This document shows, piece after piece, positions 15,168 through 55,890 of a DNA stretch of 64,000 nucleotides (positions within the stretch are counted from its first letter, which is position 1; each line of letters starts with the position of its first letter). Source of the stretch: Chara braunii. Its lineage: Eukaryota; Plantae; Charophyceae. The stretch lies in the NCBI GenBank assembly GCA_003427395.1, contig BFEA01000009.1, forward strand, positions 4,039,660-4,103,659. Reading direction: 5' to 3'. The notes under the pieces were generated by a model that saw nothing but the letters and a program-made list of their open reading frames with translations, did not search any database and was not told the origin of the DNA. The translations under genes and the position numbers were made by a program.

Positions 15168-15169
15168 GG

Positions 15170-26352: not shown

Positions 26353-26386
26353 TTAGTTTAGAGGAGATATATTATATTTTGACAGG

Positions 26387-33600: not shown

Positions 33601-34089
33601 GTGCCCGTTAACATGCCAAGATTTTAGAAAACGTACGGGCTACTACAAGAGCGCCCAAATTCATCCGCCTATAAATGTTTCTACTCTTTTTTTTTTCCGC
33701 GGTCGATAGCTAGGCCAAGTACTAGTGGTTTAGGAAACCATCAAACAAGTGGTTCAAGACGCAGCATGTACTCTACACCGCACTCAAATGCTAGATTGAA
33801 GTCATAGATCAATATGACTTCAAGATAGACTATCTGAAAGGAGAGTACAATAAGATTGTTGATGCGCTATCCGATAACTGCATTTCGCTTATTTGACAAT
33901 GTAACTCGAGCATTGGTGGCCGCGTACAAGGAACATCCTCCAATGGTAGACATCATCCACAAACTAGATGTGAAAAACAAAAGCAACATCTGATAAGTTT
34001 GTGATGGTAAATGGATTTCTCTTCCTTGAAAAGGCAGGGTTCAAAAAACTATTTGTATCGTCTAGTGAGATTTCGGGTAGTTTATTTTA

Positions 34090-36583: not shown

Positions 36584-38877
36584 TTCCACTCAAAAACTCT
36601 GAAAATCGAAGGGTCTGTGGATTTCGTTGTGGTTTTGGCAGGAAAAATATCTTTAAATTGTTTTTTTTTTAAATAGATGGTGAAATAAATGCCACGCCGA
36701 TTCATCTCTACCAAGTGTGGGCCAACCGGATATGTACCTCAACTTCAGCTATTTTTCACGACCAAACGAATGTGTCGGGAAATCTGAAAATTGGACGGTC
36801 CGTAGATTTAGTCGTGATCTTTCCAGGAAAAATATTCAAACAAACAAAAAAGTCCTCTAAACCACGAAATAAATCGCAGCGGAAATTCGATGCATTTTTC
36901 ATTTTTGCCACTCCCCTGGTTCTCCCCACCGTGCTACCGTAGCCCTCTTCAACCTGTGCTACCGGTGTCGGGTGGCTGCCTACCAGCCGAATGCTCCCTT
37001 TTCTTTGATAAGAAAAAAGATTTTGCTTTGCCGCTTGTTTTTTTTTATGTTTTTGTTGAATGAATGCATGTGCCTGAGTGTGTTCGGAGAGATTTTGGGG
37101 TCTCGGCCCCATACTAACCCTTGCATGAGCTAAAAGAGTGGTCGGCACGACAGTCTCCAGCGGGGTCGCGTAGGCTGCAAAGGTCAGAGTTTTGTTAAGG
37201 GCGTGCTCTGGGAACAGAGGAAAGGGGGACGGGCTTTTGGCCAGCCAGAAATGAGGGAGCGGGGGAAGAAGAACGAGTTTGATGTCGGCAGCGGCCATTC
37301 CACTATGGGCGTACGTTGGCCACACCAAGAAGAGAGAAGCCGACTGGGAGCGCTGGAGGTAGTGAGCTCCGGGGATCGACCGAGAGCTTATTTCGGGACG
37401 GGCCGCGACGAGATTCGAACTTGCCCTGAGGAGTCACGACAGAGCCTGGCCGCGGGGCCACGTAGGCTCGGCCAGACGGATGATACAGATGGCAATCGCA
37501 AAATGCAGTGGGTTCGCTCCTCCTCGAATCTGGTGGGGCCGGCCACTCAAGCTCTAGCAAACGGAGGTCGGTTCAATTGACTAGGGGATCAAAAAGAGGG
37601 AGGCGGGGCGAACGTATGGAGAAGAAAGAGGGGGGGGATCAAGCTAGCTGAACTCTAGCTTCAAGAAACCGGAATGGCAGGAGAAAGAAAAGAGAAAAAA
37701 AAGGGGGAAACATGGCTGGATCGGACGAAGAATGGATGAACAAGAATCAAGAAACGGTTAGAACGAAGGAGCGCGCGCGTGCTCCTTCTTGATAACTGTC
37801 GGAGTTTGAAAGAGTTGAAAGGAGGGCCAGACAGGCCATACGGAAGTTGTTGGGATCGAGCGGGAACGGGAGGGCGCAACGGCATAGGCCGAAGCAAGAG
37901 AGAGTGAGGATGGGAAGATGGAATGAGGCGGGGGCAGGGAGCGAGCGAAGAAGAGAAGGTGGGATGCCTGGCGCGAAAACACACAAGCGAAGTTTGGAGG
38001 AATCCGGTGTATGTGGAAAGATCGGCGGACCCGATACACAAATATAGGGAACACTTGCCGGAGAGCGAGCGTGCACGGAAACGCATGCAAAACGGATGAA
38101 AGAGGCTCGGGATCCGAAAGGAAGGTAGAAACGAGTGATCATTGGATGCAGGAAGAGCGAGCGGGATCGCGAAGTCGGCGGGAAGCCAAAAATTTTGGGA
38201 TCAGCGCCGAAACGGAGGAAGGAAGAGCCAGAAGGAATCAAAGGAGGAAGGTGTATAAAAGAGGGGGGGGGGAGACGTGAAGAAGGGAGGCGCACGTCAG
38301 ACTTCAGTAGCGCTTGACAGCGGGCTGGCGCTCGGGCGAACGCAGGAACGAGAAGCGCGGGCGCTTACGAAACCAGCGTACTTATGCACAGACGTGGCAG
38401 CAGAACGCACTTTTGAGCAGCCTGCGAAGGTGCGCGCATGATAGGGGCGTACTCTGGCTACTCTATGCGCCCGAACAAGAGGGGAAGGATCCGCGCACGA
38501 GCTGTGCGGGAGTGGGCGGGGAAGAGCCGACGAGTCCGAGGATACCAAGGCACTCTGGTGCGAGGTAGGAGGCGGCGGTCGCGGCGTCAAGCCAGACCAG
38601 AGCGCGAGCGAGGAGGGCGAGAGGCGAGAGGGGCTCTATGTGCGAGGGGCTACGTCAGAGCGGAGTGGTCCGGCCGTGGGGGGCCATGCGTGAGAAGGAG
38701 CACGGAGGACGCTCGGCTGCGACACAGCTATCGATTCGGGCGAGGGGCGAAGGAGAACGGAGATAAGAGACAACGAAGGTGAACGTGGAGGAGGAAGGGA
38801 GAGGGGGATTCTCGTGCGTTCGCGGTCAGGGGATTCTTCGAGGGATCGTTGGTTAGGCAGGCCACAAGCTTCTCGGT

Positions 38878-39230
38878 GGGAGTTCGCTGGTTACGAGGCT
38901 CTCTTAGCTCGTCACCAGGCTCGCTGAACACAAGCTCCTCAATTGCGAGATTCTACCGGGGAGTCCGCTGGTTACGAGGCTCTCACTTAGCTCGCTGATG
39001 ACCCTGTCACCGGGTTTGCTGATTACGAGTTCCTCAATTGCGAGATTCTACCTGGGAGTCCGCTGGTTACGAGGCTCTCACTTAGCTCGCTGATGACCCT
39101 GTCGCCGGGTTTGCTGATTACGAGCTCCTCAATTGTGAGGTTCTATCTGGGAATTCGCTGGTTACCAGGTTCCCGCTTAGCTCGCTGATGAGCCTGTCAC
39201 TTGGCTCGCTGATTACGAGCTTCTCCATTG
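38878..39230 (+). repeat. 95-bp tandem repeat, 4 units, inside LTR (also 57439-57790)
   Basis: Units start 38878 (shortened), 38959, 39054, 39149; gggagtccgctggttacgaggctctcacttagctcgctgatgaccctgtc... Confidence 0.9.
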
Positions 39231-39608
39231 TGAGTACGTGCGTGAGGTTGCGTGCGACGAGTTTTGCCGTTTTCAAGTTTTTTTTTATGATCACGAGCTC
39301 ATTGGTTCCGGATTCCTCGGTCACAAGTCTCCGCGCGTTAAAAATCTGCCGCACGTGCTCATTAGTTCCGAGCTCCTCGTGGCGCTAGAGCATTACCAAC
39401 CTCTGGCGGCATTCACCAATTACGCGGTAGCAGGTGCACGCGGTGCACGTCCGCTGGGCAAGAGTTCCGGCCGGAGGGCTCCTTTTCTAGTTCGAACCTC
39501 TGAGCTCAGATTCGGCCCTGAGGGAGAAAGGGAGAAGAAGAGAGGGAGAGAGGGAACGAGAAGGGGGAGAGAGAGAGAGAGAGAGAAAGGGGGAAGGAAA
39601 AAAAAAAG

Positions 39609-40180
39609 AGTTCTGTAAAGTGTGGCGAAGGTTCCACCTCTGTTCCGGAATCCGGCTCAGTCTGGCGTGGGAACGAGGCTGATTTTCTCGACTTTCATAA
39701 AAAGTGGTAAAGGTTCAATCTCGGTCTCTGGGGTCGGTGCAGTCGGACTTGTGGGAACAGACAAGGTTTTTTTGAGTTCCGTAAAAGAGGCGCATATCCA
39801 GTCTATGTCCCTGGATTCTATACAGTCAGATTCGTGAAAAAGAAACTGTGTTTTTTTTCTTTTCTTGAGTTCTGAATAGCATGGATTTCGAGTTCTGTAA
39901 AGTGTGGCAAGGGTTCGACCTCTATTCCGGAAACCGGCACAGTCAGGCTCGTAGGAACGAGACCGATTTTCTTCTCGAACTTCATAAAAATGTGGTAAAG
40001 GTTCAATCCCTGTCTCTGCAATCGGGCGGTCTGACTTGTGGGAGCAAGCTGGTTTTTTTTCAGTCACCATCCCTGGATTCCGCACAGTCAGGTTTGTGGG
40101 CAGAAAAGTGTGGTAAACGTTCAGTCTCCGAGCGAGACTGATTTCAACCAATTATGTAGAGTGGGGTAGGGTTCCTGCAG
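39609..40180 (+). repeat. Degenerate ~80-bp repeat with ~281-bp higher-order duplication inside LTR (also 58149-58720)
   Basis: gagttctgtaaagtgtggc.a.ggtt at 39609 and 39890; recurring cagtc.g.ct.gtggg motif. Confidence 0.7.
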
Positions 40181-40381
40181 AAAAGCGTCCAGCCTCTTTT
40201 TTTTTGAGGTCGATACGTGGGGGCAAAGAGGGTCCTCTCAAGTCCCTTGGGGCAAGGTGGGTGCCCCACATAGGACCTTACGCCCGGGCTCTGTTCTTGA
40301 AGTCTGCGCAGCAGCAACAAGGGGGGGGAGCGCTTCAGTCTCCGGGGCGCCGGGTTAGACCGGAGGAAACGGCCGACAAAG

Positions 40382-40399
40382 TGGCGCCGTTGCAGGGGA
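40382..40399 (+). promoter_or_regulatory. Primer-binding site, tRNA-Asp type
   Basis: TGGCGCCGTTGCAGGGGA, one mismatch to TGGCGCCGTTGCCGGGGA, 3 nt after LTR end. Confidence 0.9.
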
Positions 40400-41964
40400 T
40401 GAGCATTCTCCCGCGGCCTCGACTGGCTCAAGGACCACGGTGTGAGAGAGGACGAGCGTGACAGGTGGTGGAGGGTACACCTTTTTTTCGGCAATCGTTT
40501 CTTCGGCAGTTTGGTTCTCGGCATCGACTTTTCCAAACGGCATTTCGGCATCGACCTTTTTCTAATGGCGTTTTCGGCCTCGAAGATCCTCGACACTTTT
40601 TCGGTTGGGGAATTGTTTTCCGTGCGGGAGGGGTTGCTGGGTTGTCTGGGAGCGAGGGACTTGGGGGGATCGGAATCTCTTGATTTTGCAGGTCCGCACC
40701 GGCCCTGCTTGCGAGGTCAGGCTCTTGCTGGGAGGTGTGATATTTTTTGTGTGTTATTTTTTAAATCCGCGAATTAAGAGGGTGAAACAGTTTGCTTGTG
40801 GGGTTTGAATAGGGGTAAAAAACAATCAAAGAGGGGGAAGAAGAGTCGTACGGGAAAATTGTGTGAGTGGGTCCGCACGTGGGGAAGAGAGAGTGGACAC
40901 TCGGGGGAGAGAGGAAAGGGGGGTTCAAGAGGGGCCAGGGACGCCGTCGGGGTTGGTCCAAAGGGAGAGGGGTTTGCCGAATATCCTCGACCCACACGGG
41001 TTGTGGACGTCACCCGCACGGGATGAACTCCAGCGAGGGAACGGGCTTCACCAGAGGGGGCTGGGTTTTCTGTTCTCGACCCACGCGGATTAAGGGAACG
41101 GAGTTCTCAAGCTGGAAGTGTTCGGGACTTGGGGGTAAGAAGGGTAGTGCTTCGAGTTCCGGGACAAAGGGTCGAGGGAACTTCAACCGTCGTTGAGAAC
41201 GAAAGGGGTGGGGGGCTAATTCGGGAAGAAGAGAAGAGAGGTGCGTGGGGCACCTTGGACGAGGAATCGGAGGCCGAGTCCTGGGTGGACCGGTGTCTAG
41301 CCGATTTCTCGGACTCGGATCTCGGGGGCTACTGGGACTACGAGAACGAATTCTGAAAAGGTCGAAGGCTACAAGGTACGTATTTAAAGTGGCCAAGCCT
41401 GAGAGACTTTCTTGCTAAAATTCTAATTCCCCACCGTTTTTTGGAGACCCCGATTAAATTATCCGATTCCGAGAGAGAAAAGAGTCAGACGATGGCGAAT
41501 AGGAAGAAGGGAACGAAGTGAGAAGAGTTCACGATACAAGGAGGAGAACGGGAGGGACTAGACAGACTAGTAATCATTGATTAATAGGCAGATAAAGTCT
41601 CGGGACCCGGGTAATTTCACGCTCGAGGTGGGCCGAGTAAGGGCGTGGTGCCAGATAGGCTAACTTAGGACTACGGGTCGGTTCGGTGGGGGACATAGGG
41701 CACGGGTATGTGACTACGGTCCGACTCCGGAGAGGGGGTTGCCACCCCTCTTCGGGGATAACCTTTGCTCGCGGCTAGTTTCTATACCTGGAAGTGGGAG
41801 GACCTCTCAACGGGGGAGGACAAAAAGGTAGCCGAGTGAGACGACGCTCCTTCTCTGGTCCATCTGATCCTGCTGAGCTCACAGGCACCTCCTCCTTGTA
41901 GGGTAGGAGTGGTCTCTCGAGTGACCAAAAGTAAGGCAAAAAGGGTCTTCTTTGATTAGAATGT

Positions 41965-42315
41965 ATGAGCTTAGAGGCGGTCCCGGAAGGGATTAGTGTG
42001 AGCAGTTACGGTGGAGTCGACGTGTGGTGCCACACCTTTCGTCTGTGGACGGGAGATTTCAACGTTGCCATTTATGTAGAGGAAGGGCAAGGTCAGCGGG
42101 AAAATTTCCTCCGTAGTTGGGAAGAGGCGGTGGGTCACTCTCGCGTGGAAAGATAGGAGTTGAGGGGATACGGTTTTAGATACTTCTACACTTTAGGATA
42201 CCGAACCTACCCTAAGGGTGGTCGACCTGCGCCGGTGATTCCGGACGCCTACCTTGACGGGTCGGACGAGTGGAGAGCACTGGTCGCGATCATAGAGGGG
42301 ATAGTGGGGGAGTAG
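41965..42315 (+). pseudogene. Accessory ORF D1 (~116 aa, one in-frame stop)
   Basis: Reads through TAG at 42154: ...LWTGDFNVAIYVEEG...SWEEAVGH...YGFRYFYTLGYRTYPKGGRPAPVIPDAYLDGS; paralog of D2. Confidence 0.8.
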
Positions 42316-42322
42316 GGAGCCT

Positions 42323-42719
42323 ATGAGCCTAAGAGTTTTGGAGGTTGAGCCAGCTGGCATTAGTGTGGGTAGTTGTGGCCCTTCTGGGGATGTAAACGTT
42401 TAGTGTTACAACTTTTATTTTGTGGACTGGAGATTTTGACATAGCACTCTATGTAGAAGAAGGGACGGATCGAGGGGAGGACTTCCTGGATAGCTGGGAA
42501 GAGGCGGTTGGCCATGCTCGGCTAAAGAGGGTACTTTTAGGAACTTACGGGATTAGGCATTTTTACACACTAGGGTGTCGAACCTTCCGACGAGGAAAGC
42601 GACCCGCCCCAACTATACCGGAGGCCTATCTCAACGGGTCGGGCGGTTGGAAGGTGTTAGTAGGGATCATCGGGGGGGTGGTCCATGGTCAGGATTCTAG
42701 AGGCGACTGGCGACGGTAA
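42323..42719 (+). pseudogene. Accessory ORF D2, tandem paralog of D1 (stop at 42401, frameshift ~42418)
   Basis: MSL...GISV...WTGDFDIALYVEEG...SWEEAVGH...YGIRHFYTLGCRTF...RPAPTIPEAYLNGS. Confidence 0.8.
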
Positions 42720-43427
42720 GATCCAAATCGAAAAGGCCGACCTCGACAAGGAGAGACAGTGTTTCAGCGTCCCTTTAGACCATCGTATGGAGGGATATTT
42801 AGCCGGGCGCGAGAGAGGCCTGAAACTCGAAAAGGGAGTTTTTCTCTGGGCGCGCTTTACTGTAGGTATTTGGGAAGGAGATCAGTGGACCAGGACTAGA
42901 CCTAGGAACGGGGTGAAGGCCCGACGAGCGACGCTTCGTGCGGAAGGCACGATCTACTTGAGTCGGGAGGCCTAGGTAGAGTACGTCACCCACTAGGCGT
43001 TAGGGCGGTATCGGGCGGACCATCAGGAGGTACGCGTGGGGCCTATTCTTAAACAGTTCTTCGAGGAGGTACCCCTTCGACACAACCTGTTGTTCCGCTT
43101 GCGAGTGACTTGTGCTCGGAACGAGGAATACCCTCGTGCTACGGGTTGCGTCCAAGCCATATTTTCATCTTACGTCTTCAGGAGAGTGTGTGGAGAGGGA
43201 GCGCGTACGAGAAGGTCGTGAAGTCTATAAGGCGAGAGAAAAGAAGAGGGTTGTCCTTTCATTCTCTTCATTGGTACTTCTCTTATTGTGTGGATAACCC
43301 GGTGCCGTACGGGGTTAGAGATGACCGGATCCGAGAACGGGTCTCTTTGGAATCGGAGCAAGAGCGTGAAGGCGGGAGAGACTACCATTACCAAAGGGTT
43401 TTTGAAGTTCGGCAAAAGGTGTTTTAG
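42685..43427 (+). pseudogene. Accessory ORF D3 (main family), disrupted
   Basis: MVR start; VFLWA...RATLRAEGTIYLSREA*; EYPRA; KVVKSI...LHWYFSYCVDNP. Confidence 0.75.
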
Positions 43428-43432
43428 CATGA

Positions 43433-44122
43433 ATGGTTCTTTTTGACAAGGACCTTGGTAAGTTTGTCGGGTCCCCTTTAGATGAGCGAGGGGTTCGTAG
43501 CTTGGTTCCAAGCAACGGGGAAGTCCCCGATTGGAGGAGGTTGCAAGGTGGAAAAATCACGGTCGGCGGGAATTTCGTGTGGATAGAGTCGGGAGAAATA
43601 AGGGTTAGAGCGACTAGGGTGCATCTCAAAGTCACTGCGATAATCTTTGTCGAGCCGGGCGATTGGTTCAAGGTCGTAGTACCCCTGGTCTTAGGCCAAG
43701 GGGGTGGGCTGGATCTATTGCTCCAAGAAGTAAGAGAAGTAAGGAGAAGGTGGATAGTGAGGACCCGGAGAGAGTTTAGCTTTGTGGCAATAAAATTAGA
43801 GCAGTTCGCCCGGACAAGCGAGCTTCCGAGGGCGAGTTATCCGTTAACCTCAAGGGCCCCGAGCTTTGTATTCTTGAGATCAAACGAGGATAGGGTAGTA
43901 AAGCTCTTGGAGAGAGGAAGAAGTTTAGGCCTACCCTTTAGGGCCCTGTGGATACTTTACACTCACTGTGTCGACCAGGGAATCCCTCCGCGAGGGAAAC
44001 TCTGGGGTATTTTCAGGAGGCTTGGGTCTCTCGAAAAGTATGTTGCCCTCTCGCCTGGGAAGTACCGCGAGTGGGTCTTCAAAACAACCACGGTAGATGG
44101 TAAGGTTTACGCTCAGCAATAG
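43433..44122 (+). CDS. Accessory ORF D4, intact 229 aa (main family)
   Basis: NFVWI...KVTAIIFVEPGDW...LVLG...LPRA...APSFVF...RVVKLL...LWILYTHCVDQGIPP. Confidence 0.8.
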   Translation: MVLFDKDLGKFVGSPLDERGVRSLVPSNGEVPDWRRLQGGKITVGGNFVWIESGEIRVRATRVHLKVTAIIFVEPGDWFKVVVPLVLGQGGGLDLLLQEVREVRRRWIVRTRREFSFVAIKLEQFARTSELPRASYPLTSRAPSFVFLRSNEDRVVKLLERGRSLGLPFRALWILYTHCVDQGIPPRGKLWGIFRRLGSLEKYVALSPGKYREWVFKTTTVDGKVYAQQ

Positions 44123-44799
44123 CGGAGTGGTAGAAACGATAGAGGTCGGTGAAGGAAGTCAGGTCTTGATTCCTAGGGACCCTCGTGTAACTCTCTACTG
44201 GATGAGTGTTGAGAATTGAGAAGGGAGAAAACATCGGAGAAGGTGCTTACATGTGGGTCAGGGCTCATCGACTCACCTGGAAGGAAGGGGTGCGAAGGGG
44301 AGGTCCGCTTCACCTGGGTCGGTTTCTCGAGGTCCAGGCTACGGTTTTCCTGGACGAGGACTCGTGGACCGAAGTTTGGAGGGGCTTAGTGACCGGCCTA
44401 GAGACTCATACGGAGTACCGCAAGTCCGCGAGGAAGGCAGCGAACGATATAGTACTAGGCAGTTACGAGGAAGGGACTTCGGTCCCTCGAGCTTCCAAGG
44501 TGCTTCACGCAGCCTTGCCCGAGTTCCTGGGGCAGTCACTCCTGCGGGACCCGAAAGGGAGAGTGGTAGAGGAACTCCGAGCCGCTCAACAATCCAGGGT
44601 GCGGACGCAAGGGCTATTTTGGCTCTACACTCGGTGTGTTGACGCTGGGGCTCCCCCTGGGGGAGAGCTAGCTCCTATACTCGAAAGGTTAAGGGAGTTT
44701 GAGGGGGTGAGAGCTCACGTTGTTGATGTCCCGTACGCCCGCCTCTTTGGGGAAGAGCAAGTGACTAACCGAAAGGGGTACGAGGCTCGGACGGGGTGA
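44097..44799 (+). pseudogene. Accessory ORF D5 (main family), frameshift near 44210
   Basis: ATG 44097 (MVRFTLS...) joins ORF 44206-44799: AYMWV...EVQATVFLDEDSW...VPRA...LPEFL...RVVEEL...LFWLYTRCVDAGAPP. Confidence 0.78.
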
Positions 44800-45549
44800 T
44801 GATAAGGGGAATTTCGGGAACTCGTTGGGCCTCGATAGAGCCTATAGAAGAGGCGGGGGAGATTGTCCACATCATGTTACCGAAAACGAGCTTGGAGGGC
44901 CCGACGCGAACCATTCAAAGAGAAGTGGCTGAAATTCGCCGAGGGAAGGCATTCGTTCGGTTGTCAGTGAATAGCGAGAAGGGGTTAGTGATCGGGGAAG
45001 CCAAGATATTCCTTTCGAAGGAAGGTCCCCTAGAGGTAGTCCGAAATTTGAAGTTGGGAGAACACCCTCTCTTAGACGTGCGAGTTGTACGACAGATTAG
45101 AGAGACTAGTGGAGGAGGTGAGGCCTCGAGAAAGGTACCGAAAGGTATATCAAGTGACATACGCAGGTTGGGAAGAGGTACCGCTATTTGTCGCCAGTAA
45201 CCCCGTAGGAGTCCCTCGTTTCATCCTCGAGCGGGTCTACCCCTCCGAAGCGGTCAAGAGGGCGGTAGAGTGTAGGATCTCGATCTTGAACCAATTTCGG
45301 TTCACTAGATCGGACCTGCACGCCCTACTATCGTGGTGCCTCCGAAACCCATACCAGGACAATTGGTCGTCACTAGACGACATGGGCTACGCCTTCGAAG
45401 GTTGGGGCCAACACGCGAGGGCGTCGACCATTTCGTGGAGGTACTTGGGGGAGATCTGTGAGGCAGGGTTAGAAGGATTGGACCCCTCGGATCTCATTCG
45501 GATCGTGATTGCGTGCCGACGAAGGAACTTGAGGCATGAGCACGCCTGA
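44799..45549 (+). pseudogene. Accessory ORF D6 (main family), one frameshift
   Basis: MIR start overlapping D5 stop (TGATG); VRLSVNSEKG...AKIFLSKEG...LGEHPL; VPRFILERVYP...LHALLSWCLRNP. Confidence 0.75.
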
Positions 45550-45730
45550 CACCGGAGAGCTAGTGGGACTAGAGAGGGTGAGGGCAGAAGTGTATAGAAT
45601 CCTGACCCTTTGTTGGGAAGAGGAGAGAAGAGCAAGGTCAGGGTCCTTGCGCAAGATCAAATTACTTGAGACAACCACGATTAAGATCTTCGACGAATTA
45701 AAGGAGGAGCTGCTATCGGGAGGAAGATAG
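45536..45730 (+). CDS. Accessory ORF D7, 64 aa, helical/charged
   Basis: ATG overlaps D6 end; stop 2 nt before D8 ATG; no motif. Confidence 0.55.
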   Translation: MSTPDTGELVGLERVRAEVYRILTLCWEEERRARSGSLRKIKLLETTTIKIFDELKEELLSGGR

Positions 45731-45732
45731 GC

Positions 45733-46083
45733 ATGAGAGCTACCTACACCTCTAATTCGATAACCTGGGAATTAGAGACGCGTGACAACGGCCCCGAGGT
45801 CGCGGTAGAAGGGGGAGGGGAACTTAGCCCAGGTCTCGGAGAGGACCAAGAGGCTCGAGCCAAGAAGGAATTCCTCGTCGAAGTCCGACGATTAGCTTTG
45901 TGGAAGAGGAGATCCTGTAGCACTTTTGCAAAGTTTTCGGTTTTTGTTAGTAAGGCGGGGGAAGTGCGATTCTCTAGGACTCGGAGGGAACCCTTGCTTG
46001 AGGTCAAGAGAAAGTTTGAGGAGGGCTCTAGGTGGCTCAGGACTCCCTTCGAATTTTTGCACCTAGTTGAGGCCCGTTTCTAG
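45733..46083 (+). CDS. Accessory ORF D8, 116 aa, unknown
   Basis: ATG 2 nt after D7 stop; FSVFVSKAG weakly recalls the family motif. Confidence 0.55.
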   Translation: MRATYTSNSITWELETRDNGPEVAVEGGGELSPGLGEDQEARAKKEFLVEVRRLALWKRRSCSTFAKFSVFVSKAGEVRFSRTRREPLLEVKRKFEEGSRWLRTPFEFLHLVEARF

Positions 46084-46214
46084 GATAGGACGGGACAATA
46101 CGAGAGAGTTTTGCAGAAGACGATACTCGACCAAGGCGAGAGAGGGCGAGGGAGGTGTGAGGACTCGTTAGCGGAGGCGGCCGAGAGATTAGCCCGGGTA
46201 AGGTAGGCCTGTCA

Positions 46215-46817
46215 ATGATTAGATACGACAGGGGGAGCCTTGTCGGGACCTTGAAAAGGGCTTGGAAGTCGGGGGCTATATATGGAGTAACCCTCCCCAA
46301 GATCAGGGAGGAAGGGGAAGCTATTACGAAGTTCTTCGAGATCTACGGGCAGAAAATGATAGTTCGTTTTTCGATAGTTTCCGAGGGAGGTACCCGCACG
46401 CGAAGGGCTGGAATCTTCATGTCTCACAACGATAGGCAGTTCTTTGTGACCGAGTTAGCAGAAGGAAAGGACCCTCTAGGTATCGCTCGAAAAGCCCTAG
46501 ACCGGCTTAGAGGGTTGAGAGGGGGGGCCGCCGAAGGACGCGTGGTAGATAGGATTGAGTACCGAGGGAGGCTAGAGATCCTGCATGCGGCTCACGGCCG
46601 GACTTGGGAAATCCCTGCTTGGGCCTACCGACTGCTCTACCCCGACGACGCGGATGTGAGGAAGGTCCTAAATAGAGGGCAAATAATTGAAAAATTTCCC
46701 CAAGGAGAGGAGAAGGAACACGAGTTATTCACCCAGTGTTGGGAGCCGCGGGAGCATACGTACTTCGAGTGGTGGGCATTAGTAGGGAAGTTCATTAAGC
46801 CTCTATTTAGAGGGTAA
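46215..46817 (+). CDS. Accessory ORF D9, intact 200 aa, closest to D6
   Basis: MIR start; VTLPK; VRFSIVSEGG...AGIFMS...EGKDPL; IPAWAYRLLYP...HELFTQCWEP. Confidence 0.78.
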   Translation: MIRYDRGSLVGTLKRAWKSGAIYGVTLPKIREEGEAITKFFEIYGQKMIVRFSIVSEGGTRTRRAGIFMSHNDRQFFVTELAEGKDPLGIARKALDRLRGLRGGAAEGRVVDRIEYRGRLEILHAAHGRTWEIPAWAYRLLYPDDADVRKVLNRGQIIEKFPQGEEKEHELFTQCWEPREHTYFEWWALVGKFIKPLFRG

Positions 46818-46826
46818 GCCGGAGAG

Positions 46827-47069
46827 GTGGATAGAGCTCTGATTAAAAGGTGTTCTCAAGAGGGAATTAAGGGCATTTTCGATCTAGAGATTGTCAACCT
46901 AGCGTTAGCAGCTTGCGAAGAGAAACGAATACGCGACTTTTGGTGGACCGTGACTAGCGAAGAATCTGAGGGTGATAGTGAGGAACATGAATCAAGTGAA
47001 GGGGAGGGAAACTCGGAAGAAGGTAACGAAGCGGAAGGACATGGTGACACTAGCGAGGAAAGCGACTAG
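46827..47069 (+). CDS. Accessory ORF D10, 80 aa with acidic tail (may be a broken gag N-terminus)
   Basis: GTG start 9 nt after D9 stop; E/S/G-rich C-terminus. Confidence 0.4.
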   Translation: MDRALIKRCSQEGIKGIFDLEIVNLALAACEEKRIRDFWWTVTSEESEGDSEEHESSEGEGNSEEGNEAEGHGDTSEESD

Positions 47070-47072
47070 AGA

Positions 47073-48850
47073 TTGGTGATAGGGTGCATGGAAAGCGAGG
47101 TGGGACTCGCCCGATCACCTAAGACCACTGGCATGGGGCGAGCCGAGGAAGATACCGAGTTAGGGGCGAGATTAAGCAAGTCAGCCGAAGGATTGACCGC
47201 GGGGATGGAAGCTATCAGTAGGACCTTAAGGAGCACGGAGGCACCCCTCGGAGAAAGAACACTGAAACAACGAACGAGTTTCGAGGAGCGTTTGCACCGG
47301 GAAGTGGAGCCACGAATACTAGTAAGAGAAAGGACGGCAGAAGCCACGAAGGGCTTCCCGGTCGAAACCCGATGGGTGGGTCAAGTGGGCGCGGAAGAGA
47401 GAGTCGGTGAGGGGCAAGAGTTCCAGCGTGATAGGGCTGGGTGTTGGGCACCGAGGAGGGGTGAAGAAGGGAGCATAAGGAGGAGGGAACTAGGAAACGA
47501 ACGACCGACAGAAATTGGGGAAGGACCACGAAGATGGGTCGGGAGAGATATCAGTTCCGCATGGATACAGGAGGAAGCGGTAGGAAGGAATATGGGAGGA
47601 TTCGGAGACGTCTAGAGGGGGGTTAGGGGCCAAGAACGCGTGTGTTGGGAACGTGAAGACCCGGGTGATAGAGGCCGCCGTGAGGAGGAACCATGGGGAC
47701 CTCCGACGGCTCGACCGCGGATGGAGGATCTGGACCCCGCTTGGTACAAACCCTACGACCCAGTGATAGATAGGTCGCCTGAAGGTGCCTACTTCCGTCG
47801 GTGTGATGACCGGCGAGTCCCCTACTACGATGTGAGCCTAGGACTAGAATCGCTCTACTTCAATGGAAGGGACAGGGCCGGGTTCGTGGTAAAATGGGAG
47901 AGTTACGCCCACCATAAGAAATTTTCGGAGAAAGAATGGATCGACCATTTTATACAACATTCGGACCCTAAACTGGACCAGGCCATTAGGGCAATATACC
48001 CGACAGATGGGAGGTGGAAAACCTTCAACAGCAGCTTATTGCGGACCTTCGCCTACAACGATTTGATCCCTACGATAGAAGGGTTGCGCTGGGTCTCGAG
48101 AGGGGAACAGAAAAGCATGGTAGCATTCACTCGAAGATTCAAACGCTTGTCGCAAGCTTTGGTAAATAGAGGGATGCTCTCGAAAGTAGACAGGTGTGTA
48201 ATGTTCATGTTGCACCTACCCGAAGAAAAGAGGAGGGAGGTTCTCGAGAGGGCCCCTAGGGACTCGGCGAATTTCGAAAGAGTCGCCGAGGTAGTCTTTA
48301 CGGGAAGGGGAGTGGACGTGCGAGAGTACATGAAGGAAAGTCTGGACATGGCACTCCGAAGTATGCGTACTCAAAGAAACGATGGTCCTCGCGGGAACGA
48401 AAGGCAGCCTCCTGAGCCTCCCGGCCAACGCTGGGGAGGAGGACCCACAGGTTGGCGGAACACGTCCGGTAACCAAGGGAACTGGAGAACGGCCGAGAAG
48501 ATGAAGGGAATCGGGTCTCAGAATGGGGGAATTCCCATTGGAAGGATGCGAGGGATGGAAGATGGGGAGACCCTCCCCAGCCTAGGGCCATGGGGACTCG
48601 CCCCGAGGTAAGCCAGGCTAGATCGCACCCACCCGGTCCTTCGGCGACCNTGGGGACGACATAACAATCCGCCACCTCGAAGCNGGTGTGTTTATTGCAA
48701 TGAAGATGGTCACNTCAAGCGGGAGTGCCCTNACCTCACGGAAGCCCTAAGGTTAGGAGTGGTGAAGTTGAATGAAAATAAGTGAGTCGTGTGGGGAGAT
48801 GATGGAGAGGCAGTCTCCTTCTACCCCTCGATGAAGATAAACGTGGACAA
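47073..48850 (+). pseudogene. gag: gag with zinc knuckle
   Basis: LYFNGRDRAGFVVKWESYA, FTRRFKRLS; CVYCNEDGHxKREC at 48687-48728. Confidence 0.88.
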
Positions 48851-49402
48851 GAGGATTGCTCTACAAGAGGCAAGGCTAGGGAAGAAGCCTAAGGTAGGCG
48901 GNACCTCTANCTCCTCCCGCGTCCAAATGACGGAGGCGCCGGGAGGCGTGTCCATAAGGGAGCCGCAGGTGTCTAACATNAANTTCGTTGAGACGAAGCC
49001 TGAAGAAGAGGGACCGTGCCTGAGAGTGAGAACTCAAATTGGGNTCGGGCCGTCTGAGAGCAAGGGAAGCTCGATAGTGGACNGAGGGAAGAGGAGTAGC
49101 GACGACGACCAACCAATGGTCGACGCTAAAACCACGGAGGAAAGGAAGGGGGAAGAACCTTTGTCACCGAAATCGCCTAGGAAGAAAGGGCCGAAGAAGT
49201 TCGAAATGAAGTGTACCTTGGACGAGATAGACACGGTTGCGCCGCTACGGAGGACTCTAATGCAGCCAATGCAATGCACTCTTTTGGAGTATTTGGCGGC
49301 CAGCAAGAGCGCTAGAGACGAGCTCTTGAGCATCACCAGGAAGGTGAGGATTCCGCTCGTGGAAGGACCGCCCGTTCCTGGGGATGNACCGCCAAGGAGG
49401 AG

Positions 49403-50100
49403 GTGCAGTCCTCTCGGATTACGATGGAGGAGCTGCCAACCAATTTCTTCTCGGAGGAAGAGGCTAGGAAATTCTATGTATTAGGGAGCGGCCAGCTCCA
49501 AGCCATGGTGAGTGGGAAGAAGATGNGAGCCCTAGTGGATAATGGGTCCGAGTCGACCGTGTGTCGGGACTCTATAGCNAGGGAACTGGGGCTAGAAGTG
49601 GATAGGGGAGTGGCCATGTCGATGGTAGTGGCGGACAACAAGCTCCAACCGGCAGAGGGGGTATGTCACAGCCCCTTNATTGAGGTCNNAGGAGTGGAAG
49701 CTACTGTCTCAATTTTCNGGTGAAAGAATGTTTTTCCNAGTTGATCCTCGGACGAACTTGGCTGAGCGCAGTCCACTCTACTAGGGTCGATCTTCCGGAC
49801 GGAAGCCAGACCCTCTCGATCCGAAGTCCGGATGGAATTCGAGTGGTCCTAAGGACAGTGGATGCTAAAGATGAGCAGAACCGCGCCAGTGTCCCAAGGA
49901 GGAGAGCAGTTCAGTCTCGAGTATATCAGGTCCGACTAGAAGAGTCCCCCTTCGCCGAGAAGGAACCCCCGGGGAGTCGGGTAGAAGTCGAGGAGATTGG
50001 AGACCAGATAATCATCGATGGGGTTGGATATGAAAAGGAGGATGAAGAAGAGGAATTCGGTGGGTGCCTAAGGCTGTATTTTTGGGTGGAATCCCTCTAG
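49403..50100 (+). pseudogene. Aspartic protease
   Basis: ALVDNGSESTV; LILGRTWL; scattered N bases. Confidence 0.85.
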
Positions 50101-50267
50101 CCGGCAGAGGTAAGAAGCATAAAATCGTAGCGGAGAAAGTGAAACCCGCTGCGGTCAGCCGGGATAGAACGGGGGAAGCCTCGATATCGGAGGAGGAGAT
50201 AGTCGATATCATCTGAAAGCGGAAGAAGACCAAAGGGCAGCGAATTACGACCGATAGGCTAGCTAAA

Positions 50268-51300
50268 ATGGACATAGGGGATGGAAACCTCACAGAACAA
50301 GAGAAGGAATATGTGGCTATGACCCTAAGGGATTGCGATAAGGCCATAGCCTTCGATGATTCGAAAAGAGGGAGGATAGACCCAAGGTACGCTAAGCCTG
50401 CCCGGATCCATACGATACCTCACGTACCGTGGAAAAACAGACGGTCGTGGAAGTATGCGCAAAAAGAGAAGGAAAAGATAGTGATCTTCATTAAAGAGAA
50501 GATAAAGACATTTGTCGCGGAACCTTGTGAGAGTGCCTACTCAAACAAGTGGTTCTTTCGGAGAAAAGGAGGTAGCAACAAACTAAGGTGGATCCAGAAT
50601 CTCCAAAGGACCAACGCGGTTACTACTCGCGGAAGGATCGGCGGGTCGCTCAATCTACTCAATCTGCGATCTCTTATCGGGCTATGATGAGATCCTCTTG
50701 GATTACCGAGATAGACACATGACCGCGATGCACACGCCTCTAGGGCTAGTTCAAATGATGGTGGTACCTATGGGGTGGACGAACGAAGTGGCGGTGTTCC
50801 AAGGAGCCATGATCGTGGTCCTCAAGGAATTCATACCGGATAAGGTAGAGGTCTTCCTTGACGACTTCCCAATAAAAGGGCCGGTCCAAAAGGATGAGAC
50901 AGAGGTCTTCCCTGGGGTAAGGAAGTTTGTGGTGAATAACATGGTAGATGTAACGGAGGTCCTCGCGAAATTAGATGACGCCAACCTTACCGTGAGTGGG
51001 ACTAAGAGTCGCTGGGGAGTATCATCGATCAAGATATTAGGCTTCATCTGTGACAAGGATGGGCGAATGCCCGATCCCGCGAAACTAAAAATATTGATGA
51101 CCTAGTCGTCGCTACTAAAGTCAATCACGGACGTGAGGCAATTTCTAAGGGTGGTGGGCTACTGAAGGATCTTTATAAAAGCCTACAGCGAGAAGGCGAA
51201 GCCCCCTAGACGACTGCTTAGGAAAGTTGAGGGATGGATCTGGGGAGAGGAGCAGGCCGCGGTCATGGAAACCCTCAAAAATGAATTCCGGGAAGGAGGA
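50268..51300 (+). pseudogene. pol: Reverse transcriptase
   Basis: LRWIQNLQRTN; AMHTPLGLVQMMVVPMGWTN; VFLDDFPIKG; internal deletion and stops. Confidence 0.92.
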
Positions 51301-51329
51301 CAAGTCTTGGGGCGTTTCGTTCTTCGAGG

Positions 51330-53325
51330 ACGAGGAGAACCGCCCATTCATAGTTTCCACGGACGCAGGACCATGATCCGTAGGAGAACTTCTGTCTCAA
51401 AAGGATCGAGATGGGAAAGAGAGACCCATGCGATTTGAGAGTTGGGCCTTGAATCCCGCCGAGAGGAGCTACAACCAATTCAAGAAAGAAGTGTTGGGGG
51501 TGTTGCACTGCCTAAAGACCTTCCGCCACTACATCTACGGGAGACGGTTCCTCCTAAGAGTGGACCAGACCGCGGTAGTCGCTGTCCTTCAAAAGGACTT
51601 CTCGCTAACCGACCCGACTATTGCTAGGTGGATGATCCATATCATGCTCTACGATTACAAGGTCGAAAGGATCTCTGGGGCCAGAGATCAGGTTGCCGAC
51701 GGGTTGTCCCGACTCCCAATCCGAGGCGAGGATTACCCGAGATTGGAGGAAGCAAGGCTAGCAATATCCAAGGATAAGATAATCCAAGTCACCGCTAACA
51801 AGGCGCAAGTAGAGGTGATGATCCGAGAGGAAGGCGAAGGCCCTAGGACGTTCTTCGCCAACCATTACGACGGAAAGTACCAAGATAAAGGGTTATACCT
51901 AGCGGGTCGAGAAGAAGGCACCGAGGTAATCAAGAGGGCGACGCTTGGGTATTGCCTACGAGGAGGACACCTCTTTAAGAGACCCACCAAGTTCGCAATC
52001 CCCATGCGGGTGCTTTGCGATCCGGAAGAAAGGAGGGCAGTCATAGAAGAGTTACACGACGGCGTCGTCGGGGGGCGTAGAGGGGTAAAAAGGACTTTTG
52101 ATAAAGTTCGCAGGCTCTATTGGTGGGATGGGCAGTACGCGGAAGTCGAAAAGTACTGTTTAACCTGTGAAGCATGCCAAAAGAGGGCGACCATCCGTTA
52201 CAAGGAACCCCTTGTACCATCGCTCCCCACCGTCTCAGGCGAAAAGGTCCACATTGATTTAGTAATCATGCCCAAAGGAATCGGCGGGCTTCAGTACATC
52301 ATTCATGCCCTCGATGACCTCACGGGATTCGTAGAAGCTAAGGTCATTAAAAAGAAGATGGTCGAGGATGTGAGTGACTTTCTCCTGGAATACATCGCAA
52401 GGTATGGGTGTGTCGGGAAGATAATCATGGATAGGGGGTCCGAGTTCCTAAGCCAAAAGGTCAAGGCAATATTGGAAAAGGCGGGGATTAAGGCGGCCTA
52501 CATGACTGCCTACCACCCCCAAAGCAATGCTCCGATCGAAAGAGGCCACCAGACGTTGGTAGATGCTTTGGCAAAATGGTGCAAGGGGTGAGATGAGCAA
52601 TGGCCAAAGTATTTGCGCTATGCAGTTTGGGCCGACAACATCACAATAATACTTGGAGTGTCACGTGGAAAACCAACATGACTAGGGGAGAGTTGTTAGA
52701 GGCGAGGATACAACAAATAGCAGAAAATCTAGACGCCGGACTTACCGACGCCGGGAAGAACATCGAGAAGGAGAGGGTGAAAGGGAAAGAAAGTTGGGAC
52801 AAGAATTTGCGGGTCCGACAAAAGCCGATAGGGACTAGTGACCTCGTCCTGATGTACGACTCATCCTTAGAAAAAACTTGGAGCAAGAAGCTAGCCACCC
52901 GGTGGATGGGGCCGTATCGGGTCTTAAAGAGACTGGATGGGGGAGCATACCTTCTTTCCAAATTGGACGGGGCTAGGTTACGGGACCCTATCGCGGCGGC
53001 TCACCTCAAAATTTTTCGATGGAGAGAGACCCTTAGGGAGGAACCAAAAAGGAAAGTAAAGGAAGCAGTCGATGCGGAGGTGGCCGCCACCCACGAGAAG
53101 GGAGACACTTCAAAGCAGGGGGCCTCTTCGCGACCACCTAAAAGGGGGTACAAGGTTCGGAGACCTCCCCAGCCAAAAACACCTAGGAAAAACAAACGGC
53201 CAAGGGAGGATGACTGTGATACTGACCAATTGGGGAAGCGTCGGATGAGAGAGAGAAGGAGCGATTTGATGAAAAGCCTTGAAGAGTCAAGTGCGAGAGA
53301 GAAGAGAGGAAGCGAAAAAAAGTGA
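51330..53325 (+). pseudogene. pol: RNase H and integrase with GPY motif
   Basis: TDAGP; ERSYNQFKKEVLGV; HDG...CEAC; HIDLV, MDRGSEF, YHPQSNAPIERGH; WMGPYRV; no chromodomain seen. Confidence 0.93.
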
Positions 53326-54111
53326 GGCGAGAGAGAAAGATGAGGAGGGGGAGACGGGTATAAAACCCCTAGAAAAGGGGGGGGGTCTATACCACGACTA
53401 GGGGAAGCTAGTGTCATAATTCCAAAGAAAGAAAGGCTAAGAAAGGATGTACCCTAGTTAGAAGAAACATGTACCATAGTTAGGAAGGAGGAAAAGATAA
53501 GGGGGGGACAGGGCTATAGTTAGGTGAAGCCACTTATAAACCGAAAAAGCGGAGGCCTGTACCATAAACCATGTAGGGAAAAAAAAGAAGGGAACGTAAT
53601 CCGATAGAGAAGGTAATGCAAACCGGGGAAAAAAAAATACGCATAACGAGTGTGTTAGGGGGAAAAGAGGGACCATTAGGTATGGGGAAAGGCATGGGAA
53701 AAGAAGGGTTACGAAAAAGCTCACGGGGACGACGAGAATTGGGGTGTGGGCTGGTTGTCGGGCGCCTGTCTACCAGTCAGATGCTCCCTTTTCTTTGATA
53801 AGAAAAAAAAAATTGCTTTGCTGCCTGCTTTTTTTTATGTTTTTGCTGAATGAATGCATGTGTCTGAATGTGTTCGGAAAGATTTTGGGGTCTCGGCCCC
53901 ATACTAACCCTTGCATGAGCTAAAGGAGTGGCCAGCACGACAGTCTCCAGCGGGGTCGCGCAGGCTGCAAAGGTCAGAGTTTTTTTAAGGGCGTGTTATG
54001 GGAACAGATGAAAGGGGAACAGGCTTTTGGCCAGCCGGAAATGAGGGAGTGGGAGAAGAAGAACGAGTTTGATGTCGGCAGCGGCCATTCCACTATGGGC
54101 GTACTTCGGCC

Positions 54112-55890
54112 CTATGAATCCCCCTCGGCGGCAGCCAAGCACGGCCGAATCCGCGGACGCGGCCAGTCCGCCGACCCCTCGGACGGGTCCGCGCTCCTTT
54201 GACGCCATGTGGCGGCCAGACGAGAAGGGGGTTGGGGATTCGGGAAGCGCCATGCGGCGGTGCAACCCCAGACCCACCCCCTCACACAAAGAAAAATGAA
54301 AAAAAGTTTAAAAAATCATTTTTTAATTGGGGGGGTTGGGCTATATTACGAGGAGAAGTNNNNNNNNNNNNNNNNNNNNNNNNNNNNNNNNNNNNNNNNN
54401 NNNNNNNNNNNNNNNNNNNNNNNNNNNNNNNNNNNNNNNNNNNNNNNNNNNNNNNNNNNNNNNNNNNNNNNNNNNNNNNNNNNNNNNNNNNNNNNNNNNN
54501 NNNNNNNNNNNNNNNNNNNNNNNNNNNNNNNNNNNNNNNNNNNNNNNNNNNNNNNNNNNNNNNNNNNNNNNNNNNNNNNNNNNNNNNNNNNNNNNNNNNN
54601 NNNNNNNNNNNNNNNNNNNNNNNNNNNNNNNNNNNNNNNNNNNNNNNNNNNNNNNNNNNNNNNNNNNNNNNNNNNNNNNNNNNNNNNNNNNNNNNNNNNN
54701 NNNNNNNNNNNNNNNNNNNNNNNNNNNNNNNNNNNNNNNNNNNNNNNNNNNNNNNNNNNNNNNNNNNNNNNNNNNNNNNNNNNNNNNNNNNNNNNNNNNN
54801 NNNNNNNNNNNNNNNNNNNNNNNNNNNNNNNNNNNNNNNNNNNNNNNNNNNNNNNNNNNNNNNNNNNNNNNNNNNNNNNNNNNNNNNNNNNNNNNNNNNN
54901 NNNNNNNNNNNNNNNNNNNNNNNNNNNNNNNNNNNNNNNNNNNNNNNNNNNNNNNNNNNNNNNNNNNNNNNNNNNNNNNNNNNNNNNNNNNNNNNNNNNN
55001 NNNNNNNNNNNNNNNNNNNNNNNNNNNNNNNNNNNNNNNNNNNNNNNNNNNNNNNNNNNNNNNNNNNNNNNNNNNNNNNNNNNNNNNNNNNNNNNNNNNN
55101 NNNNNNNNNNNNNNNNNNNNNNNNNNNNNNNNNNNNNNNNNNNNNNNNNNNNNNNNNNNNNNNNNNNNNNNNNNNNNNNNNNNNNNNNNNNNNNNNNNNN
55201 NNNNNNNNNNNNNNNNNNNNNNNNNNNNNNNNNNNNNNNNNNNNNNNNNNNNNNNNNNNNNNNNNNNNNNNNNNNNNNNNNNNNNNNNNNATTCCAAAAA
55301 AAAAAAAAAAAGGGTTGTAGGGCTTAAAATTCCCTACAACCCCTTTTTTTTTTTCCCTATGATTTAAATCAGGAAAATTCTGGTAAAATCGGGTCCACGC
55401 CACAAGTGAATTCTTATATTTATATATTCATTTACTTCTAATTTTTATTTCTAGTTCTTATATTTCAATTTATATAGAAAAGAATATTACTATGAATACA
55501 TACATATAATATGCAAATATTCTAAATAATTGTATTAATTATATGTAAATATTGTAAGTAATTACAAGCAATTACAATACAATAAATTCAATAGAGCAAA
55601 GTAAAGGAGATAGACCATTATCTAATACAATACAATGATAAATAAACAGAATCTTGTAATAGATACAATCTTAGAATAGTATGAATATTAGATATTGAAG
55701 AATATTTTATTAGAGAAATTTCTTCGTTTATTTATTCATATTGAAATCAATAGAATCTCAAATATTCTATTTTTTTTTTTTTTTTTTGATTACTAATTCA
55801 ATTCATGGATTAGGACGGCCGCGGACGCGGCCACATATGCGGCCGCCATCCGAGATCAGCCCCGCGGACGCGTCCGCGGGCGTTTCATAG
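54112..55890. mobile_element. Non-autonomous hAT-like DNA transposon spanning an assembly gap
   Basis: TIRs CTATGAATCCCCC / GGGCGTTTCATAG (11 of 13); imperfect 8-bp TSD cttcggcc / cgttggtc versus single cgttggcc in 5' LTR; subterminal ccgcggacgcg motifs at both ends. Confidence 0.72.
54360..55290. other. Assembly gap (N run)
   Basis: Continuous N run. Confidence 1.

Follow-up and report, generated by a model that had tools for sequence, protein, structure and literature searches.

The usual view is that a eukaryotic mRNA has a single long open reading frame (ORF) translated by ribosomes. The window analysed here, 64,000 nucleotides of the Chara braunii contig BFEA01000009.1, contains a retrotransposon, element D, in which nine accessory ORFs are packed end to end ahead of gag. 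How might gag, and each of the ORFs before it, be translated?

Element D is a decayed Ty3/gypsy LTR retrotransposon. It has a 4-nt target-site duplication, CCGG (36962..36965, second copy at 58902-58905), paired TG...CA LTRs, and a primer-binding-site-like sequence that begins TGG 3 nt past the 5' LTR (40382..40399). All features apart from the duplication lie on the plus strand. The 5' LTR (36966..40378; 3,413 nt, ends TGTCGG...CCGACA) is 95.0% identical over 3,004 aligned columns to the 3' LTR (53756..58901), which is split by an unmatched stretch containing an N gap (54360-55290). The inferred promoter is a TATAAAA at 38254..38260, with a 3' LTR counterpart at 56815. The LTR also holds a 95-nt tandem repeat. 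The broken gag-pol region (47088..53325) comprises gag, protease, RT, RNase H and integrase. In a Pfam scan of some of the pol pieces, matches to RVT_1, RT_RNaseH, Integrase_H2C2 and rve follow one another in the order that fits Ty3/gypsy; the protease domain was found in homolog P0009, matching 49355-49717 of the window, and the Retrotrans_gag match is weak (E 0.086). The relatives of element D are Chara braunii gene models.

The array opens with D1 (41965..42315; 116 codons, one in-frame stop) and its paralog D2 (42323..42719), which is frameshifted and has a D1-like N-terminus. D3 (42685..43427) is broken; its C-terminal part is paralogous to D4 and D5, and its N-terminal part scores against the family of a second element in the window, element A. 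D4 (43433..44122) is open over 229 aa with its start as the sole Met, and that start is identical in P0009. D5 (44097..44799) and D6 (44799..45549) are frameshifted in the window copy; in P0006, D5 has the same initial Met and reads through without a break, and D6, a paralog of D9 from residue 1, is continuous in P0007. D7 (45536..45730) encodes 64 aa. D8 (45733..46206; 157 codons) and D9 (46215..47069; 284 codons, acidic tail) each have one in-frame stop in the window copy; D8 is continuous in P0009 and D9 is uninterrupted in all five other copies. The array thus contains three paralog groups (D1/2, D3/4/5 and D6/9), and just 40 of the 5,123 nt between D1 and gag are free of ORFs. The first-pass annotation had counted ten ORFs before gag. 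There are nine, as 46818-47069 is the D9 tail in 5/5 other copies; position 47088, 18 nt beyond the D9 stop, opens gag, with support from P0007.

Since the window copy is decayed, several ORF ends depend on reading across breaks, and this reading is backed by other copies for D5, D6, D8, D9 and the gag N-terminus. The sequences of these copies come from predicted gene models whose exons were stitched together, and members of a single family are not independent. Because the starts of D4, D5, D6, D9 and gag are retained in other copies, and because D7 varies chiefly at third positions (26 of the 37 variant places listed), we regard D1-D9 as real ORFs. Chance frames were ruled out by the D7 bias, the paralogy and the conserved copies. 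Current gene models conceal the accessory ORFs, which are stitched onto gag or pol.

Searches with the accessory proteins returned few leads. No Pfam families were found for pieces of D1-D9, a PDB sequence search with a D3-5 profile gave no matches, and a search for proteins near the length of D4 gave none among 508 candidates. The predicted folds of D9 and D4 are poor (mean pLDDT 40). A viral fold search with the poor D9 model found nothing at E<=0.001, and the ESM Atlas held no usable D9 match; its best score for D4 was 0.77, which we treat as a lead only. A metagenome scan with D9 found two loci (31% over 70 aa) on bacterial-looking contigs, one of which (L001) was inspected, and both were dismissed as chance.

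The region ahead of gag is depleted of ATG. From 38285 to 47087 (plus strand), which would form the 5' half of the genomic RNA, there are 49 ATGs in 8,803 nt (5.6/kb). The 1,288 nt upstream contain 25, and gag-pol has 18.8/kb. This roughly threefold depletion affects all frames and covers the 8.8 kb between the TATA box in the LTR and the start of gag. Change points in ATG density at 38166 and 46966 coincide with these two landmarks, and the interval around the first (38016-38791) encloses the TATAAAA. Within the window copy, internal Met makes up 7 of 1,598 accessory codons (0.44%) and 50 of 1,938 gag-pol codons (2.6%; p=1e-7). All nine ORFs fall below the gag-pol rate, eight of them at P<0.05, D9 among them.

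Low Met as a trait of the proteins was ruled out, as out-of-frame ATGs are depleted too: the accessory ORFs have 13, compared to 34.3 expected from codon-order shuffles (0/5,000 as low), and gag-pol has 54 compared to 53.3. Codons ending in A precede a TG-codon in 0/59 cases in the accessory ORFs and in 13/62 in gag-pol, while A before TA, TC or TT is normal in the accessory ORFs. Permuted triplets and CAT have no similar reduction. General loss of TG was ruled out as the cause by this A-before-TG test and by dinucleotide shuffles. In other copies (~57-67% protein identity), there are 6 internal Met in 2,712 aa compared to 63 in 2,491; with one copy per ORF, there are 4 in 1,095 compared to 27.7 expected. 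Depletion ranges from threefold to sixfold over these tests, and ATG is not absent. Of the 49 remaining ATGs, 19 sit in the leader, where uORFs reach 114 codons, and 8 of the 13 in the LTR part of the zone are present in both LTRs. Two ATGs, 41708 and 43321, are private to the window copy according to the contigs, and just these two are so shown.

We scored start contexts by the general Kozak rule, which may not be the preference of Chara genes. None of the ten starts (D1-D9 and gag) has a strong context, defined as A at -3, or a purine at -3 plus G at +4. Strong contexts are found at 3/37 ATGs before gag and 33/112 after (p=0.008). Three strong in-frame ATGs lie inside gag (47133, 47205 and 47592), and the context of 47133 is retained in P0007, judged from flanking residues. 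Element D combines AUG-poor upstream ORFs with weak upstream starts and stronger ones in gag, as in rice tungro bacilliform virus (RTBV).

ORF interiors cleared of ATG in all frames fit leaky scanning and are unexplained by reinitiation at junctions. On this sequence pattern, we somewhat favour a reading in which leaky scanning along one genomic RNA serves to translate gag and the nine accessory ORFs of element D. The RNA would begin near 38285, and 40S subunits would scan through ORF interiors, with each weak start capturing a fraction and the rest caught at gag. That scanning would go on to gag is suggested by the D9 interior, which is also depleted of ATG. Part of the passage across the 3.7-kb leader would likely involve shunting, splicing, or short uORFs followed by reinitiation. 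In a toy model with 49 AUGs and 5% capture at each, at most 8% of subunits arrive at gag; with 20 AUGs and 10% capture, 12% do. Pure scanning from cap to gag would therefore be too weak unless many of the pre-gag ATGs are decay products. Raw RNA reads numbered 4, 192 and 1 in three runs, with 6-13% of each run read. Reads from the 192-read run were in both orientations, with none >=99% alike and no joints or start piles.

An unlikely alternative is that the ORFs and gag are expressed from separate mRNAs, subgenomic or spliced, with the tight junctions merely reflecting compaction after tandem duplication. The paralog groups do show duplication, many ATGs persist before gag, and full-length RNA was not seen among the few RNA reads. 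Furthermore, splicing is known in Ogre elements, between gag-protease and RT in the available part of the source (PMC6317226). However, separate mRNAs give no reason for an all-frame loss of ATG whose limits are the TATA box on one side and gag on the other. Splice-acceptor-like tracts are not enriched ahead of the ten starts: at 9/10, the best AG no more than 40 nt away has an ordinary pyrimidine tract, and D5 alone is in the top 5%. A single TATA-like 7-mer occurs within the array (46277).

The junctions between ORFs had led the first-pass annotation to propose translational coupling, and the seven distances given for element D are all exact on recount: D1/D2 +7, D2/D3 -35, D3/D4 +5, D4/D5 -26, D5/D6 -1, D6/D7 -14 and D7/D8 +2 nt. 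The D5 stop and D6 start overlap as TGATG (44797-44801), as described. Two further junctions, D8/D9 (+8) and D9/gag (+18), are also tight, so that 9/9 lie within -35 to +18 nt, five with stop and start at most 8 nt apart and four at 14-35 nt. When the same 33 ATGs were placed at random, an ATG fell within 36 nt of all nine stops in 13 of 200,000 trials (P about 7e-5). Leaky scanning by itself needs no tight junctions. These would have arisen as tandem duplicates were compacted, and local reinitiation may assist.

This geometry could fit coupled termination-reinitiation, chained junction by junction down to gag, and variation among copies bears on it in both directions. The middle letter of the D7 stop is changed in 168 of 480 depth (10 contigs); where it is altered, the frame would run on, by the window sequence, to a stop that overlaps the D8 start as ATGA. 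The 40 of 64 variant rows listed leave the D7 start and the D6 stop untouched and include no indel in 45500-45760, which is a weak test of conservation. In three further data sets, 45500-45760 had no contigs, which counts neither way; variant places within ~31 nt of the stretch ends, the D8 ATG included, appear to lie outside the listable range. Across 56 junction-codon letters, no variant occurs among 40 of 986 rows listed, which is too weak to count. There are also precedents, in the portions of the sources available: pneumovirus reinitiation needs no TURBS and can occur as far as 29 nt upstream (PMC3542737), and SART1 is a precedent among non-LTR retrotransposons (PMC10275272). However, under the chain no loss of ATG within ORFs would be expected, spacing is mixed from junction to junction, the D7 stop itself varies, and TGATG overlaps arise simply, from the 95-nt LTR repeat. 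As for the suggested TURBS-like motifs, TGGGA is present in the 100 nt ahead of 1/9 junctions (background 2.1 per kb), and the sequences upstream of junctions share no 5-7-mer above chance. Nine serial low-efficiency restarts would also be expected to leave gag little. We consider such a chain quite improbable. Of the coupling proposal, the real ORFs and a layout that looks built for one RNA also carrying gag are upheld, and termination-reinitiation as the main mechanism is not. Reinitiation at the tight junctions may nevertheless help leaky scanning.

A TAV-like transactivator that allows reinitiation after each long ORF is very unlikely: nine proteins without assigned function are on offer, and element D resembles cauliflower mosaic virus (CaMV) in its junction range (1-nt gaps to 38-nt overlaps with no cis motif required in CaMV, in the part of the review available; PMC5902531), but no Pfam family for pieces of D1-D9 and no PDB match for the D3-5 profile points to one (an activator unrelated to TAV might exist), no candidate for a monocistronic RNA encoding it is seen, TAV reinitiation does not require AUG-free interiors, and that part of the review reports it nowhere outside Caulimoviridae.

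Element A had been described as having similar junctions. The GTG at 8057 and ATG at 6142 exist, but the starts indicated by paralogy are far from the preceding stops: A3 would start at ATG 7823 and A4 at ATG 6922, ~220 and ~150 nt after those stops. ATG 6142 opens a 52-codon ORF without support; GTG 8057 shares the A3 reading frame and might belong to an N-terminal extension of A3. Although the element A array is related to that of element D, it has no ATG depletion, and 4/4 paralog-defined starts have a strong context. With its long spacers, these features mean that the parallel fails. More tentatively, the sequences could represent a charophyte LTR-retrotransposon family with a ten-cistron mRNA, in which 40S subunits scan ~9 kb of AUG-cleared RNA that serves nine paralog-derived genes before gag, and the element A lineage, with its related accessory family, might be expressed differently.

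If leaky scanning operates as proposed, a retrotransposon could retain a growing accessory gene set without new promoters, and element D would allow leaky scanning and reinitiation to be tested directly against each other in the streptophyte lineage. It might also supply a design rule for plant multi-gene expression.

Several known systems resemble element D in part. Calicivirus and influenza B TURBS sites share the stop-start overlap (D5/D6, and ATGA at D7/D8 in some copies), but element D has no UGGGA enrichment, mixed spacing, and nine junctions rather than one. Like the OTA clade (Ogre/Tat/Athila), it is ~20 kb long with multi-kb LTRs that carry tandem repeats and with extra ORFs, and its CCGG site fits the NCGN preference of Phygy elements (PMC6317226); this likeness is one of size, extra ORFs and target site. 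In the accessible parts of these accounts, Ogre has one or two extra ORFs (PMC6431247) compared to nine here, and Phygy elements are short, with a polyprotein that fills nearly the whole internal part, unlike element D (PMC6317226). The Drosophila MDG1-group (412, Mdg1, Stalker) also has small accessory ORFs ahead of gag; as far as the excerpt describes, both are translated and the RNA is unspliced and runs from LTR to LTR (10.1101/2025.03.14.642691). However, there are two, of ~110 and 70 aa, compared to nine in element D, which measure 64-284 codons and fall into paralog groups.

Closer in mechanism are the bicistrons of Chlamydomonas and Auxenochlorella, where leaky scanning is backed by mutation (PMC11291117). 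In the available text, these share a weak ORF1 context, an ATG observed/expected ratio of ~0.45 before the last ORF and, at some loci, overlapping stop and start. They are chlorophyte host genes with two ORFs in the analysed sets, whereas element D is a charophyte transposon with ten. The leaky-scanning signature of RTBV has been tested by mutation, with ~900 nt scanned (PMC5902531). As in element D, the pregenomic RNA of RTBV and badnaviruses is described there, in the part available, as having accessory ORFs before the core polyprotein, weak starts, AUG-free ORF interiors, short overlaps and a long uORF-bearing leader. A search for long hairpins in element D found none. Element D differs in being an integrating Ty3/gypsy element, with a depletion that is ~threefold and incomplete in a decayed copy. 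RTBV has two accessory ORFs over ~900 nt; element D has nine over 5.1 kb, plus a 3.7-kb leader, and if our reading is correct the scanned length would be ~10x that of RTBV. Nine-plus-one ORFs would thus likely exceed the described mutation-tested cases of leaky scanning (RTBV and algal bicistrons, with two or three ORFs), and a natural array of this kind with an AUG purge would extend the known scanning distance and start number of the 40S subunit.

The ORF array lies entirely within element D, an LTR retrotransposon at 36966–58901 on the plus strand, with LTR ends TGTCGG...CCGACA, a flanking 4-nt CCGG target-site duplication (36962–36965 and 58902–58905) and a TGG-initial, primer-site-like sequence after the 5' LTR. 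Its pol encodes RT, RNase H and integrase in Ty3/gypsy order, and its LTRs are 95.0% identical (3,004 columns). Contigs from DNA run X1 (n = 3,134) span the entire window and are mostly <95% alike, indicating a multi-copy family with a decayed window copy. The CCGG site is consistent with the NCGN preference of moss Phygy elements, as described in part of PMC6317226. The 3' LTR is broken at 54112–55890 by ~1.8 kb containing a 931-nt N gap, either an assembly gap or an insertion. X1 contig depth is ~3,000 at 41500–41970 versus 200–900 across the ORF array; this end of the leader seems common to many more elements than the array.

The compact array of nine accessory ORFs (D1–D9) ahead of gag is real. 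Stop-to-start distances, from D1/D2 to D9/gag, are +7, −35, +5, −26, −1 (TGATG), −14, +2, +8 and +18. The seven reported in the first-pass annotation are all exact, and D8/D9 and D9/gag also fit. When the same 33 ATGs were placed randomly, 13 of 200,000 trials brought all nine junctions to within 36 nt. Only 40 of the 5,123 nt are non-ORF sequence. Ten ORFs had been counted before gag; there are nine, as 46818–47069 continues D9 (in 5/5 other copies) and the frame opening at 47088 is gag, into which it leads in P0007. The D1 stop aligns with a D2 codon 27 nt upstream of the present D2 stop (42686–42692); judging by sequence, the 35-nt D2/D3 overlap may once have been shorter.

Paralogy groups D1/D2 (125 bits), D3/D4/D5 (14–34 bits) and D6/D9 (18–20 bits, aligned from residue 1), with best shuffled scores <9 bits. 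Relatives of D4, D5 and D9 comprise nine Chara braunii gene models (P0001–P0009; ~57–67% identity over matched parts) and one further protein. Homologous start Met codons are kept for D4 (P0009), D5 (P0006), D6 and gag (P0007) and D9 (P0001, P0002). In the second-copy comparison, which covers D4, D5, D6, D8, D9 and the gag N-terminus, the breaks seen in D5, D6, D8, D9 and the gag N-terminus of the window copy are absent. Being gene predictions whose exons have been stitched together, these other copies are a better guide to starts and interiors than to stops. In them, accessory ORFs are fused with gag or pol or with unrelated sequence, which hides the array in annotation. Furthermore, D7 variants in X2 contigs lie at third codon positions at 26 of 37 listed places (p = 5e-6; 40 of 64 rows, leaving out the stop-codon row and counting two doubled places once).

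ATG is depleted from the TATA box to gag. On the sense strand, the 1,586-nt leader contains 6 (no other of the 64 triplets ranks lower when compared with dinucleotide shuffles) and the 5,105-nt array 30 (z −3.4), compared to 105 across the 5,587 nt examined in gag-pol. CAT shows no such reduction. Excluding the D3 middle and a few nt around frameshifts, internal Met occupies 7/1,598 accessory codons versus 50/1,938 in gag-pol, and out-of-frame ATGs number 13 versus 34.3 in codon-order shuffles (0/5,000 that low), compared to 54 versus 53.3 for gag-pol. Codons before a TG-codon end in A in 0/59 cases in accessory ORFs and 13/62 in gag-pol. The ATG rate is below that of gag-pol in 9/9 accessory ORFs (P<0.05 in 8). 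Other copies, with segment ends set by hand, have 6 Met in 2,712 accessory aa versus 63 in 2,491 of gag-pol, or, with a single copy per ORF, 4 in 1,095 versus 27.7 expected. A two-change-point fit places the ATG-poor zone from 38166 (38016–38791) to 46966 (46816–47691), boundaries that match a TATAAAA motif present in both LTRs (38254 in the 5' copy) and the beginning of gag (47088). Starts are graded strong or weak by the general Kozak rule, not derived from host genes. None of 10 start contexts has A at −3, or purine at −3 with G at +4. Strong-context ATGs number 3/37 ahead of gag and 33/112 after, three of them in frame just inside gag. Non-start ATGs directly followed by a stop are 5/27 before gag (41708, 42074, 42390, 42451 and 46654; two at paralogous places, one private to the window copy) versus 3/112 in gag-pol.

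On balance we favour, from sequence, a single genomic RNA. 40S subunits would scan it through ORF interiors, initiation would leak past nine weak accessory starts, and gag would capture. AUG clearing inside ORFs matters only if 40S subunits scan there. D9 is also ATG-poor inside (7 versus 16 expected, P = 0.01; five other copies, 263–295 aa long, have 2 Met between them), which would be needless unless scanning continued to gag. The tight spacing of the junctions is consistent with compaction that followed duplication, and local reinitiation may contribute there. Counting against leaky scanning, 49 ATGs are left ahead of gag in the window copy, 19 of them in the leader, with uORFs of up to 114 codons, and 8/13 LTR ATGs are common to both LTRs. 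The RNA yield also counts against it: runs X8, X9 and X10, 6–13% of each read, gave 4, 192 (both orientations) and 1 reads, with no joints or start piles among them. Toy throughput to gag is low unless capture is ~5–10% and many ATGs are decay products; contigs show only two to be private to the window copy, and three further in-frame Mets of D5/D6 are missing from P0006/P0007. The 95-nt LTR tandem repeats (38998–39388) carry, in both LTRs, 31-codon uORFs linked by TGATG overlaps at 38998, 39093 and 39188. These overlaps are either a by-product of the 95-nt periodicity or a leader ladder for reinitiation.

Expression of the ORFs and gag from subgenomic or spliced RNAs is unlikely. Slightly less likely still is a pure termination-reinitiation chain across the junctions. 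TGGGA, given as the TURBS core in part of PMC3542737, lies upstream of only 1/9 junctions, and no 5–7-mer is common above chance to the sequences upstream of the nine. The polycistronic idea of the first-pass annotation stands, although the evidence favours leaky scanning over TURBS-type coupling. Junction conservation, also proposed there, draws slight support from the D6–D8 region (45500–45760), the part covered at the DNA level: among the rows listed (40 of 64), the D7 start and D6 stop show no variant and no indels appear, but the D7 stop differs at its second nucleotide in 168/480 depth (10 contigs). In that case, reading on through the window sequence leads to an in-frame stop that overlaps the D8 start as ATGA, so the stop position shifts and the coupling distance stays short if those copies retain the window letters there. 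The variant listing appears to omit places within ~31 nt of stretch ends, the D8 ATG among them. It should also be noted that C>T at 45541, a CpG-type site, occurs in 274/1,239 depth (12 contigs); it may give an earlier D6 stop just behind the D7 start and could be methylation decay. A TAV-like activator encoded by element D is highly improbable. Accessory proteins matched no Pfam family, and a PDB search with a D3–5 profile came back empty. The ESM Atlas yielded nothing usable for D4 or D9, and the predicted folds of both are poor.

Element A, a minus-strand retroelement with four paralogous ORFs of ~270 aa ahead of gag (6126–9671), had been offered as a parallel case. The codons named for it exist, yet paralogy sets the A3 start at 7823 and that of A4 at 6922, ~220 and ~150 nt past the preceding stops, so it is not parallel. 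Its N-terminal profile scores 14.7 bits against D3 (best of 1,000 shuffles 7.9). As an internal control, its array has Met at 31/800, no out-of-frame ATG deficit and strong start contexts at 4/4 (A2 uncertain). Element A thus represents another lineage, whose accessory family is related to that of element D but whose expression route is apparently different. Just upstream of its first accessory ORF lies a minus-strand complex I 49-kDa subunit gene fragment (9825–9914 plus ~80 nt; PF00346, E 4e-7), nad7-like and possibly captured organellar sequence. Two more retroelements lie at 13669–28090 and 29789–35260; one has 1.5-kb LTRs 89% alike with flanks not matching as a target duplication, and the other is a plus-strand gag-pol remnant whose ATG content is normal.

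No literature on the element D family, or on leaky scanning over an LTR-element ORF array, was among the matches listed. The Chara genome paper was not among them, and a description of the family may exist there, in the supplements to that paper or in repeat databases. Judging from the portions consulted of each source cited here, additional ORFs are common in plant Ty3/gypsy elements, chiefly 3' of pol (PMC7264820), and a plant LTR survey counted them only at ≥250 codons (PMC6317226), a threshold that would miss most element D accessory ORFs. Ogre has 1–2 extra ORFs, compared to nine in element D (PMC6431247), and MDG1 elements of Drosophila carry two small ORFs ahead of gag that are translated from unspliced RNA (10.1101/2025.03.14.642691). 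AUG-cleared ORF interiors, as in element D, have been described as a hallmark of leaky scanning in RTBV and badnaviruses (PMC5902531) and likewise in green-algal bicistrons (PMC11291117).
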